DNA of 64,000 bases from Eledone cirrhosa (lineage: Eukaryota), in contig OZ024741.1 in the NCBI GenBank assembly GCA_964016885.1, positions 147,808,001-147,872,000 of the forward strand. The letters run 5' to 3'. Below are positions 18,929-47,004 of the stretch, one piece after another. How positions within the stretch are numbered: position 1 is the stretch's first letter; the number at the start of each line of letters is the position of its first letter. Made by a program: the position numbers and the translations under genes. Below the pieces are notes generated by a model. That model was not told the DNA's origin, did no database searches, and was given only the letters and a program-made list of their open reading frames with translations.

Positions 18929-19989
18929 TACACAAAAAAATGTTTATATATCAAGCTTCTTTCTGTCCTGATGCCTCTATATGAATGCTCGAGTATTGGT
19001 GTTCAGATAAATGGTGCTAAATTGAAACCATTCAATGTGAGATCAGACTCTGCCAAGGGTGCATGCTGTCTCTTCTCCTGTTTATTGGATTGACATGTGC
19101 AGCCGGGTTGGAAGTGGCAGGTGTAAAATCAGTCGGCTAGAATTTGCAGACAACAAGGTGTTACTCAACAGAAGGTGATCTCTGACTTGCACTTGATAGG
19201 TTTGAAACTGAGTGCTTCATGACTGGAAAGAAAATTAGTGCTGCAAAAACTGAGACACTCGTCTTCTCAAAGAAGCCTGCAGAGTGCACTCTGCATGTGA
19301 ATGAAGTTCCATTGAAGCAGATGGAGAAGTTCAAGTATCTCAGAGCCATATTCATGAGTGATGGAAGGCAGGAGACTGAGTTAAGTGCAAGAATTGCATG
19401 AGCTGGTGCAGTAATACGCCAACTTTGTCAATCAGTAACCAGAGAAGGGAGGTAGATGTAAAAGCTAAACTCGTTATCTTCAATTTGGTATTCATGTCAA
19501 CCCTTAGCTATGGTCATAAATCTTAGCTAATGACCGAAAGAATATGATCGCGAATACAAGCGGCCAAAATGGGATGCCTCCATATCTATATATTATCATT
19601 AAGTCCAGCTCTACAATGAAAACATAACAGGAACATGCATTTCGTTGGCTTAACCAACTTTTCAACCTGTGCTGGGGGAAAAAGAACTGGAAATAATTTA
19701 TATAAGGGAGGGAGATCAACTTGTGCTAGGGAAAAAAGAACCAGAAATAGCTTAGGAATAATATAAAGGAAGGAAGAAAATTATAGAAAGAAATGTTAAG
19801 AAACCAGCATGGGGGACCCTTGCAGTTAGAATGAATGAGTATAGAGTTACATGCTACGTAGGCCGTAGGCCAAACCCAAAAGATTCGAAAGAAGGATAAC
19901 GTAGGGATAAAGTAAGGTATAGGAGCAAATATGTTTTTAGAGTTAACTGCAGCGAAATAAATTAAAAAAGCCCATTTAGGCTACTGACA
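18929..19989. repeat. Outer left arm of the large palindrome, containing an RTE RT fragment (about 19100-19580, +)
   Basis: Reverse complement of 45937-47004. The ORF track gives an identical 60-aa peptide at 19219-19401 (+) and 46526-46708 (-). Confidence 0.92.
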
Positions 19990-20096
19990 CATTTTCATAA
20001 CTAGATCGAAGACTGTATTAACTGGAAACTCACCATTTTCAAGATGATATTTGTCATTACTGAGATTACGTGTTGGAAACTGAACCAAATCATATA

Positions 20097-20280
20097 ATTG
20101 TTTCTACTTTAGGCACAAGGCCAGCAAATACCCAGTGCATTACTGGTACTTTATTTTATCGACCCCGTAAGGATGAAAGGCAAAGTCAACCTCGGAGGGA
20201 TTTGAACTCAGATCGTAAAGGGACGTAACTATGCTGGAAAGCATGGCGTGCGACCCTCTACCGATACTGCCAATCCACCG
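20097..20280 (-). mobile_element. SINE, present in the left arm only
   Basis: Long copy of the SINE family. The mirrored site at about 37755-37775 lacks it. Confidence 0.85.
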
Positions 20281-21019
20281 TTTATGCAGTCTTTATATAT
20301 TAAATTACCATATTTCCCGGCGTCGAAGGCGCTACTTTTTTTTCATAAAATAAGTCTGGAGGCCGACGGTTGTTTATTATTTTTTTTTTTCAAATTTTTG
20401 CCGCCGGGAAATACAGTAAAATGTGTTCGCCTGGCTATAATCGACTAGAAACAGCAATGAAAAAAACATAGTTGGTAATTGTTTATCATAGAAATGTGAG
20501 CAAAGTTCATATGTCTGAAACCTAAAGTAACACAGAAAAAAGCCTACTTAACCTTACCCGGACGAAAGCTAGGAAATTTCGCAATTTATCATTCATCTTA
20601 ATGTTATCTCCATAATTATGCAGTTGGTGCCAGTACATCTCCCAACAAGATATGATTTCTGCTCTGTTAACCTGGCTTTCACACACTGAAGCATTAACAC
20701 TGCAGTAACTCAACCACTCTTACAACACGCGGGTTTCATTTACAAACAAAAGAAAAAGAAAAGAAAACACAGAAAAATTAATTCAAAAACAAACAAAAAA
20801 AGATCTATCGCCTTGCTTCTCCAAATTTTTATCGGTGAAGATTCTCATCAAGCATCTGCTAACGAAATGTGTTAGTTTTTGAAGCCCCAACTTGTTCGTG
20901 CAGCAATTCGGCAATCTTGGAAAAGTTAATTCTACATAAGTGGATATAATTCAGACTAAGAGTCAGACCTGTAGTGATTGAATGAATTTCTCCACAATTT
21001 AGCTGCCCATATTATAGAT

Positions 21020-44370: not shown

Positions 44371-44689
44371 TTGCTCCATCATTCTCATTCCAATTTTTCT
44401 CTTCTTTACTTCTCTCTTTCTCTCTATAATCCTCTCATTTTCATCTTTAAACTCTCTCTCTTCCATTCTCTCCCTCTCTCCGTTTTTCTACCCAATATGG
44501 GGTTACATCTTAACCCGAATGTTTGCTATGCACATAGTAATCAGCTGTTTATAGCTACTTCCGCATTGAGATTCCAACAATTTTATGAAAGTTAATTTTT
44601 TTTTTTTTTAAATCTTTATTTTACTTATATTTTATCGATGACGTAGAAAATATATACAAACTGATCTACTTTCAGCTCTGGAACATAAG

Positions 44690-45550
44690 AGTATAACTTA
44701 ACAAATACTCTTTGTGTTTCGGGTGTGCAAAATCAGATCAATTTTACGGTCAAAGGAGAAGTAATGTGTCTTAATCCGTATCGTGAGCAAATGGGATCCC
44801 ACGTGGGCCTCCCCACAGCCCTGACGGACAGAATGGAGAAGGCGTTTCCCCGGAGGATGGTAAGGGAGATGCGTTGGAAGAGCCATCCCAACTCTCGAGG
44901 CTCACACCTGCGGCTGACCAGCTCAGCGCCTATGGTAGTGAATAGGGAGGTAGCCTTAGGGCCAAGGACACCAGAAGTCTCCACTTCCAAGGGCACGACT
45001 GCGAACCTGTCGGAGAGCGACCGGCACTTGGAGAGTTTGGTCTCCTCAGCCCGACGAGCAGCACAACATGGGTTAGTCGCAGACTGTACCTGGTTGCGGC
45101 TGCAGAAAGTGTTGCTGCAACTGGCATCCCAGACAAGGGGTTTGCCACCACGGAACGGGAAGATGGTCATACCGTCTGGAAAGCGGCCGGCACTGTAGCA
45201 AAAGGAAAGCGGGTGGAGGCCGAAATAGTCCACGGTGGGATTCACAGCGACATTTATGTCCAAGCCTCAAGGAAACGTTGATGCGCAAGCTATCGTTTTC
45301 CAGCTGCGTGCCAGGGGAGAAAGAGGGCAAGGCATGGAGCCAGACACCACTGTAGGGTTTGGAGGCCGTGCGAAAACAGGCAAGGCGGTACTGGTCGAGC
45401 TGGCGCGTGAGCCAGTCTGAGGCCAGGCTGTACTGGATGGCAACCCAAATACAGCAAGGGGAGAGGGAGGAGGGACGTCTACTGGGCTAAATCCCAGCCG
45501 GTCCCACGTCTCACAGGTGGCCTCACGTTCCCTGATCACAGAGGGTTCCA
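44690..45550 (-). mobile_element. CRE-like 3' fragment encoding a restriction-like endonuclease
   Basis: RFPDGMTIFPFRGGKPLVWDASC...PLEVETSG...QRISLTILRGNA, a PD..D RLE signature. Confidence 0.85.
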
Positions 45551-45936
45551 TTGTTATACACTCATTGCTTCAATCCTTTTTCAATTAATGTTTACACACA
45601 CACACACACACACACACATTACATACATATATATATATATATATATATATATATATATATATATATATATATATTTGGATTGGTGTCTGATCATGCAGTT
45701 AGCCCACCAGGAGTGAGTGATCTCTGGTCCTTGTTAGGCCATCATTTTAGGAGAAGGAAAACTCTGATGTAAAATCTGCGACTCAATGGCAACCAATGAT
45801 GGTGACCTCTTCTTCTTTTTGGATACCTGTCACTGAGAGAGAGTTTGGTCCAGTAAAAGACCTTTCTTCAATTAAAGCTTCAAGCACAAGCATTACTTGC
45901 TCTAAATGGCTTACACATGTGTTACATGAGCATGGC

Positions 45937-47004
45937 TGTCAGTAGCCTAAATGGGCTTTTTTTTTTATTTCGCTGCAGTTAACTCTAAGAACATATTTCC
46001 TCCTATACCTTACTTTATCCCTAAGTTATCCTTCTTTCTAATTGTTTGCGTTTTACCTATGGCCTACGTAGCATGTAACTCTATACTCATTCATTCTAAC
46101 TGCAAGGGTCCCCCATGCTGGTTTCTTAAAATTACTTTCTATAATTTTCTTCCTTCCTTTATATTATTCCTAAGCTATTTCTGGCTCTTTTTTCCCTAGC
46201 ACAAGTTGATCTTCCTCCCTTATATAAGTTATTTCCAGTTCTTTTTTCCCCCAGCACAGGTTGAAAAGGTGGTTAAGCCAACGAAATGCATGTTCCTATT
46301 ATGTTTTCATTGTAGAGCTGAACTTAATGATAATATATATATATGGAGGAATCCCATTTTGGACGCTTGTATTCGCGATCATATTCTTTCGGTCATTAGC
46401 TAAGATTTATGACCATAGCTAAGGGTTGACATGAATACCAAATTGAAGATAACGAGTTTAGCTTTTACATCTACCTCCCTTCTTCTGGTTACTGATTGAC
46501 AAAGTTGGCGTATTACTGCACCAGCTCATGCAATTCTTGCACTTAACTCAGTCTCCTGCCTTCCATCACTCATGAATATGGCTCTGAGATACTTGAACTT
46601 CTCCATCTGCTTCAATGGAACTTCATTCACATGCAGAGTGCACTCTGCAGGCTTCTTTGAGAAGACGAGTGTCTCAGTTTTTGCAGCACTAATTTTCTTT
46701 CCAGTCATGAAGCACTCAGTTTCAAACCTATCAAGTGCAAGTCAGAGATCACCTTCTGTTGAGTAACACCTTGTTGTCTGCAAATTCTAGCCGACTGATT
46801 TTACACCTGCCACTTCCAACCCGGCTGCACATGTCAATCCAATAAACAGGAGAGGAGACAGCATGCACCATTGGCAGAGTCTGATCCCACATTGAATGGT
46901 TTCAATTTAGCACCATTTATCTGAACACCTATACTCGAGCATTCATATAGAGGCATCAAAACAGAAAGAAGCTTGATATATAAACATGTTGGTTTTTTTT
47001 GTGT
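45937..47004. repeat. Outer right arm of the large palindrome
   Basis: Reverse complement of 18929-19989. Confidence 0.92.

Follow-up and report, generated by a model that had tools for sequence, protein, structure and literature searches.

The question raised by this locus is how a long inverted repeat came to lie around a receptor gene. In a stretch of 64,000 nucleotides from Eledone cirrhosa (contig OZ024741.1, positions 147,808,001 to 147,872,000; hereafter the window), two arms mirror each other on either side of an intact class-A GPCR gene. The original prediction took the whole for an inverted duplication around that gene, by which the receptor family would grow, and for an undescribed system. 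The mirror is real but is ordinary array turnover, not a fold-back palindrome. The parts of the locus on which the argument depends are as follows.

1..19652 (beginning at -1212), right arm of a separate, apparently much younger palindrome, overlapping S.
5158..9187, plus strand, copy C: a direct copy of the inner left arm, its junction, the broken GPCR1 and the first 0.7 kb of the right arm.
7195..8407, GPCR1, broken, within copy C.
18929..19989, minus strand, outer piece S of the left arm, 2.6% from 45937-47005.
19990..19994, junction of S with flank X, five extra bases, corresponding to 37864/45937 on the right.
19995..27290, minus strand, copy of the 3' flank X in inverted orientation and without genes; it contains decayed elements and an internally deleted LINE.
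27290..27291, junction at which the left arm meets the retroelement remnant in front of GPCR2, with 1 bp of microhomology.
27291..28192, plus strand, non-LTR retroelement remnant, common to the upstream regions of several paralogues.
28358..29356, plus strand, GPCR2, an intact intronless class-A GPCR of 332 amino acids (Pfam 7tm_1, E 1.9e-28).
29421..37864, plus strand, native 3' flank or intergenic block X between GPCR2 and GPCR3 (the 'right arm').
37865..45936, plus strand, unmirrored 8 kb with GPCR3, its flanks and LINE fragments.
38659..39738, plus strand, GPCR3, an ORF of 359 amino acids.
45937..47005, plus strand, native S, the end of a two-gene unit.
62582..64000, minus strand, start of inverted unit F (62582-70907), which carries an interrupted GPCR4 and faces unit E (74.6-89.4 kb) head to head.

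Self-comparison of the window by BLAST finds inverted similarity at the positions originally given for the arms: 18929-19989 is mirrored by 47005-45937 at 96.4% identity, and 19995-27290 by 37864-29421, as collinear pieces of 77-93% identity with bit scores of up to 1909. With gaps left out, the main arms differ at 369 of 5,008 columns (7.4%; 92.6% identity) and the far piece S at 28 of 1,060 (2.6%; 97.4% identity). The spacer between the arms (27291-29420, 2,130 bp) contains an intact GPCR2, as predicted. Beside the gene lies an RT-like remnant that resembles the RT-like ORFs at 35243-35887 and 44736-45266; its name 'CRE' would follow from motifs and is given by no analysis. To speak of a ~28-kb palindrome is too generous, the mirror being patchy: 6,229 of 8,362 bases are mirrored on the left and 6,895 of 17,584 on the right, together 46.7% of the 28,076-bp span, and the 8 kb around GPCR3 are essentially unmirrored (125 of 8,072 bases have a mirror partner).

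The arms do share unique DNA, in that the inner-arm sequence is specific to the receptor cluster. When 25328-27290 was used as a query, its positions 544-1963 matched only within the cluster (40 of 2,952 candidates scored). The first ~650 bp of S are a dispersed repeat, 77-84% identical to copies elsewhere and 96-100% to the local ones. The deletion within the LINE, at ~23694, had been offered as evidence for this pair of arms. It is real and specific to the cluster. Of 519 candidates 40 were scored, and in the 66 matches listed from them ~23694 is clearly crossed by cluster copies alone; one outside row overshoots the deletion by 12 bases, and most outside copies with both halves retain ~400-450 bp at the site. 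The copies at -65 kb (A) and 96 kb (D) carry it too, however, so that it marks the array unit and not this arm pair.

It could be supposed that the mirror is an artefact of assembly, in which two haplotypes were misjoined in opposite orientation, or else a gene-carrying transposon with long terminal inverted repeats. The richness of the region in repeats speaks for either. Against an artefact stand the 7.4% of substitutions between the arms, the relatives that each arm has elsewhere in the cluster, and the absence of any N within the 64-kb window. The junction at 27290 recurs in four copies (at -61826, -13660, 6125 and 27290), three of them 2-3% apart, which argues against a misjoin at this point. 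Exact-match contig depth over left arm, gene and right arm is similar in run X1 (17.3, 16, 14.7 and 17.5), although such depth is not copy number, may come from the assembly's own sample and is weak evidence. No contig across 27290 was found among the 24 listed of more than 232,000 pieces, the contigs being short and swamped by repeats; the junction at 19990-19994 is crossed without differences by one public contig (run X3). A transposon is countered by the cluster-specific inner arm, which is unlike a dispersed element. Taken together, the alternative of artefact or transposon is hardly credible; an assembly artefact in particular appears unlikely from the sequence, as the original prediction had held on the strength of the divergence between the arms.

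The comparison with neighbouring DNA that the original prediction had proposed covered the window with 150 kb upstream and 250 kb downstream, in extended window coordinates. It revealed an array of ~400 kb of intronless class-A GPCRs, with further head-to-head pairs of units (F/E, D/B and C'/C). Of the 19 loci between -114 kb and 289 kb, 12 are full ORFs (11 on the plus strand); a further ORF is truncated, three genes are broken or split, and the other three loci are short fragments. In a tree of the 13 cluster ORFs with eight database proteins, other GPCRs of the same genome being left out, the former make up one clade (SH-aLRT 99). The nearest named protein outside is annotated as cholecystokinin receptor type A-like in Octopus sinensis (40% identity). 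The order within a unit is receptor, flank X, GPCR3-type receptor, flank Y and S. Flank X is found behind many paralogues, with its first kilobase after most of them, and in units B, D, E and F its long form extends into the region upstream of the GPCR3-type genes. The 'right arm' is thus the ordinary 3' flank of array genes; its X bears an internal duplication around 31185-33448 and has as its sister the flank of paralogue D (92-99 kb). Direct tandem copies at 167.7-205.1 kb are 99.2-99.99% identical; two of them differ by one mismatch in 8,361 bp and have identical GPCR ORFs, and they represent either a very recent duplication or an expansion in the assembly.

The array allows the two arms to be compared with their relatives. 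A cassette of left arm, junction, GPCR2-type gene and the start of X occurs as A (-69.5 kb), B (the locus at 28358), C (5 kb) and C' (the mirror of C). Between A, B and C, left arms diverge by 2.4-2.9% and right arms by 3.5-4.9%, whereas left and right differ by 6.4-9.8%. Informative sites that pair by side, by locus or otherwise stand at 32:0:0 for A/B (583 columns), 23:0:0 for B/C (571 columns) and 27:0:0 for A/C (586 columns); pairing within a locus is thus favoured at none of 82 sites in the three comparisons, and with D as the fourth row the counts are 148:6:2 (4,191 columns). A tree of 13 flanks, from which unit F is absent, places the left arms, and with them 19995-27290, among the flanks of the paralogues at 75 kb (E), 140 kb (G140), 159 kb (G159) and 172 kb (G172) with support of 98/95, and the right arms with D; block trees agree where they are supported. 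On the inner 1.25 kb of X, which is the basis of both rooting and tests (the remaining X forms three deep lineages, left, B/D and E/F, that cannot be ranked), AU tests reject the grouping of the left and right arms of B (p 2.5e-36), of the left and right arms of A-C (1.4e-4) and of the same with D added (0.019). The stretch 21467-22445 of the left arm is common with unit E and missing from its own right arm. A quartet that sets B left with E against B right with D (70:12:15) was set aside as proof of closeness between left arm and E; it shows only that B and D are sisters. By these trees and site counts, the left and right inner arms come from different paralogue lineages and are not copies of each other. 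Of the claim that the arms are an inverted segmental duplication and not independent insertions, the segmental copy stands, but the arms as copies of each other do not.

These results bear directly on the proposal that GPCR2 lies in a true fold-back duplication whose arms were preserved or repaired by conversion between them. In its shape, a collinear mirror with inverted arms and a kilobase-scale spacer of 2.1 kb, the locus is like the human fold-back inverted duplications described in the available text of PMC3907307, and the outer 1.7 kb of the arms are merely 2.6-4.2% apart. The arms here are from different paralogues, however, and microhomology at the junction is 1 bp long, unlike the 2-8 bp at 13 sequenced fold-back junctions, or the hybrid repeat, in that text. 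Since the site counts favour side over locus, there is no arm-to-arm conversion near the gene and no sign of it in the inner arm; arm identity is ~92.6%, against more than 99% in the conversion-maintained palindromes of PMC8327919, as far as its available text goes. A fold-back origin at this locus is accordingly most improbable.

The outer 1.7 kb require separate consideration, being younger between the arms (S 2.6%, distal X 4.2%, like A versus B). One explanation is an older, true palindrome of the whole unit, whose right inner part (the gene and proximal X) was later swapped by unequal exchange with a GPCR2-type unit, such that only the outer arm ends are true mirror copies. This accounts for S and distal X being younger than proximal X, and 45937-46343 is indeed common to the left arms and B with no match in E. 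Nonetheless, a young distal layer (1-6%) is also seen between B and D and between E and F, which suggests exchange among units generally and need not concern this pair; an extra event would be required; and the site patterns do not pair the left arm with B. We regard this alternative as unlikely. The outer sites are few and conflicting (4:2:1 and 4:3:0, with 1:1 in S), so that a contribution of the B unit, or early conversion, is possible in the outer 1.7 kb.

It is probable, in our judgement, that the arms are the flanks of two paralogous units of the tandem GPCR array, set head to head, and that the left unit, likely placed by inverted duplication, then lost both its genes, likely via end-joined deletions. 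A copy from the lineage of the genes at 75 and 140-172 kb would have come to lie upstream of the GPCR2 ancestor, turned round; this orientation is seen and the route is our reconstruction. One deletion would have removed the inner gene of the left unit and the centre as far as a point 1.07 kb short of the GPCR2 start, and a second its GPCR3 copy and Y, the former genes of this unit having presumably stood at this place. The resulting cassette would then have been copied directly (A at -69.5 kb, C at 5 kb) and once more in inverted form (C' at -13.7 kb), with independent decay of both arms afterwards. Both junctions are abrupt, with 1 bp shared at 27290 and the five extra bases at 19990-19994. 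The left arm starts 64 bp behind the stop-codon position, and the microhomology is judged against paralogue D as the inferred ancestral state and sole reference, which keeps the element further 5'. The S/X junction, identical in copy A, amounts to a left unit from which GPCR3 and the DNA behind it have been deleted.

A simpler route would be a plain inversion within a direct array, of the stretch from the 3' end of one gene to the upstream element of GPCR2, with neither duplication nor loss of an inner gene. In one step this brings another paralogue's flank up against that element, giving the arrangement seen at 27290. In 464 kb the reciprocal junction was not found, possibly through later loss: the part of the element that lay 5' of the break, which D retains (101248-101620), has no other match there. 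We consider a plain inversion very unlikely, and return to two paralogous units with inverted duplication and deletion as the preferred history. The mirror is a by-product of birth-and-death turnover in the receptor family, with a function that is putative at most.

As a decayed piece of that turnover the mirror itself matters little. The value rests in the cluster. Its young family of cephalopod receptors shows diversifying selection across whole genes, in a signal that ranks among the clearer ones, and the junctions common to its units record how it was rearranged. The coding sequence diverges faster than the flanks. For A/B the flanks differ by 2-5%, compared with dN 0.172 and dS 0.094; for G158/G171 the flank differs by 3.4%, with dN 0.125 and dS 0.032; and neighbouring genes differ by ~3% at silent sites and flanks and by 12-13% at replacement sites. 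Some recombination is hinted at, because dS of A/B exceeds the value for its flanks. Three codon models, which take no recombination among paralogues into account, give omega 2.03-2.23 for 11 paralogues and 317 codons (52 of 369 codons with gaps were dropped, as were G194, identical to G185, and the truncated gene at 90 kb), a gene-wide dN/dS of ~2.1, with 2 delta lnL of ~52 against omega fixed at 1 (kappa on a grid). Non-coding arms treated as codons, as a control, gave 0.65-1.02 in nine of nine trials. Pairwise dN/dS rises to 3.9 among the genes at 139-195 kb and is ~1 (0.98-1.24) among the GPCR3-type genes. From these comparisons the receptor family appears to be under diversifying selection, with unusually fast protein change, a pattern that may point to receptors tracking a changing set of ligands. 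The ORFs with high dN/dS span -60756..289423 and include 28358-29356 and 38659-39738. An aspartate occupies a first-helix position in GPCR3 and in its inverted copy at 90 kb; in the other 11 paralogues of the alignment this position is a valine.

Inverted units are found at four places within ~130 kb: the left arm, C' against C, F against E, and D against B. F and E are mostly 1-5% apart, and their inner genes survive only as 3' fragments. Growth of the family by repeated inverted duplication, as first proposed, is in part borne out by these four units, but 11 of 12 full ORFs share the plus strand and most expansions with intact genes are direct duplications. Only in D was an intact gene gained via inversion; the other intact gains, including the near-identical copies at 168-205 kb, are direct. 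We tentatively suggest, as a rather doubtful reading, that the cluster is a hot spot in which head-to-head duplication recurs, with at least four events of different age in ~130 kb, in which inner genes would have been repeatedly trimmed from the centre and flanks reshuffled among receptors evolving at a gene-wide dN/dS near 2; a ~46-kb palindrome would be the youngest round. This is also a place to ask whether inverted duplication is commoner here than elsewhere in the genome.

The ~46-kb palindrome pairs -1212..19652 with -6311..-26459, in arms of ~20 kb that are 99.4-99.9% identical around a 5.1-kb spacer. It relates C' to C, duplicates the broken GPCR1 and overlaps the left end of S; its arms differ also by indels of 840 bp and ~100 bp. 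From its sequence it would be either a real young duplication or a false haplotype duplication. Its spacer contains a 2.1-kb element (-6091..-3991) with identical 368-bp direct repeats at its edges and a 93% relative in the window at 53508-56561. In unit F, GPCR4 is split by ~1.15 kb at 64690-65845.

Two published studies of cephalopod GPCRs are relevant here, which we take to be those of Ritschard et al. 2019 (PMC6408891) and Nath et al. 2025 (PMC11886862). According to their available text, lineage-specific expansions of class-A GPCRs in tandem clusters, with positive selection, are already known in cephalopods (PMC6408891, PMC11886862), and the present array resembles them in its clustered neuropeptide-receptor-like class-A GPCRs, its full, truncated and broken copies and its signs of positive selection. 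The claim of an undescribed system thus gives way to turnover of a known type in a cephalopod GPCR array. In the corresponding part of PMC6408891, positive selection was on branches and no single sites were found, unlike the dN/dS of ~2 averaged over whole genes here. The word 'inverted' is absent from the main texts of both papers (PMC6408891, PMC11886862), and no report of inverted duplications in cephalopod GPCR clusters was found in the open literature searched; table S2 of PMC6408891, which gives gene directions, may already reveal mixed orientation.

With the primate sex-chromosome palindromes, as the available text of PMC8327919 presents them, the locus has in common a gene family in inverted copies, and the loss of the centre in head-to-head pairs resembles the spacer deletions of those palindromes. 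It is unlike them in the lack of conversion, the ~7% divergence of the arms and the gene-less left arm. On sequence identity (99.4-99.9%), the younger palindrome upstream would seem closer to them in form.

Other inverted structures occur in the window. Inverted repeats of 650 bp at 52826-53468 and 58782-59430, 97.8% identical, enclose 5.3 kb with RT-like ORFs, and are possibly two copies of one element. Short self-inverted elements lie at 11329-11750 (94%) and 22456-22802 (88%), the latter built from a common short repeat present twice in opposite orientation.
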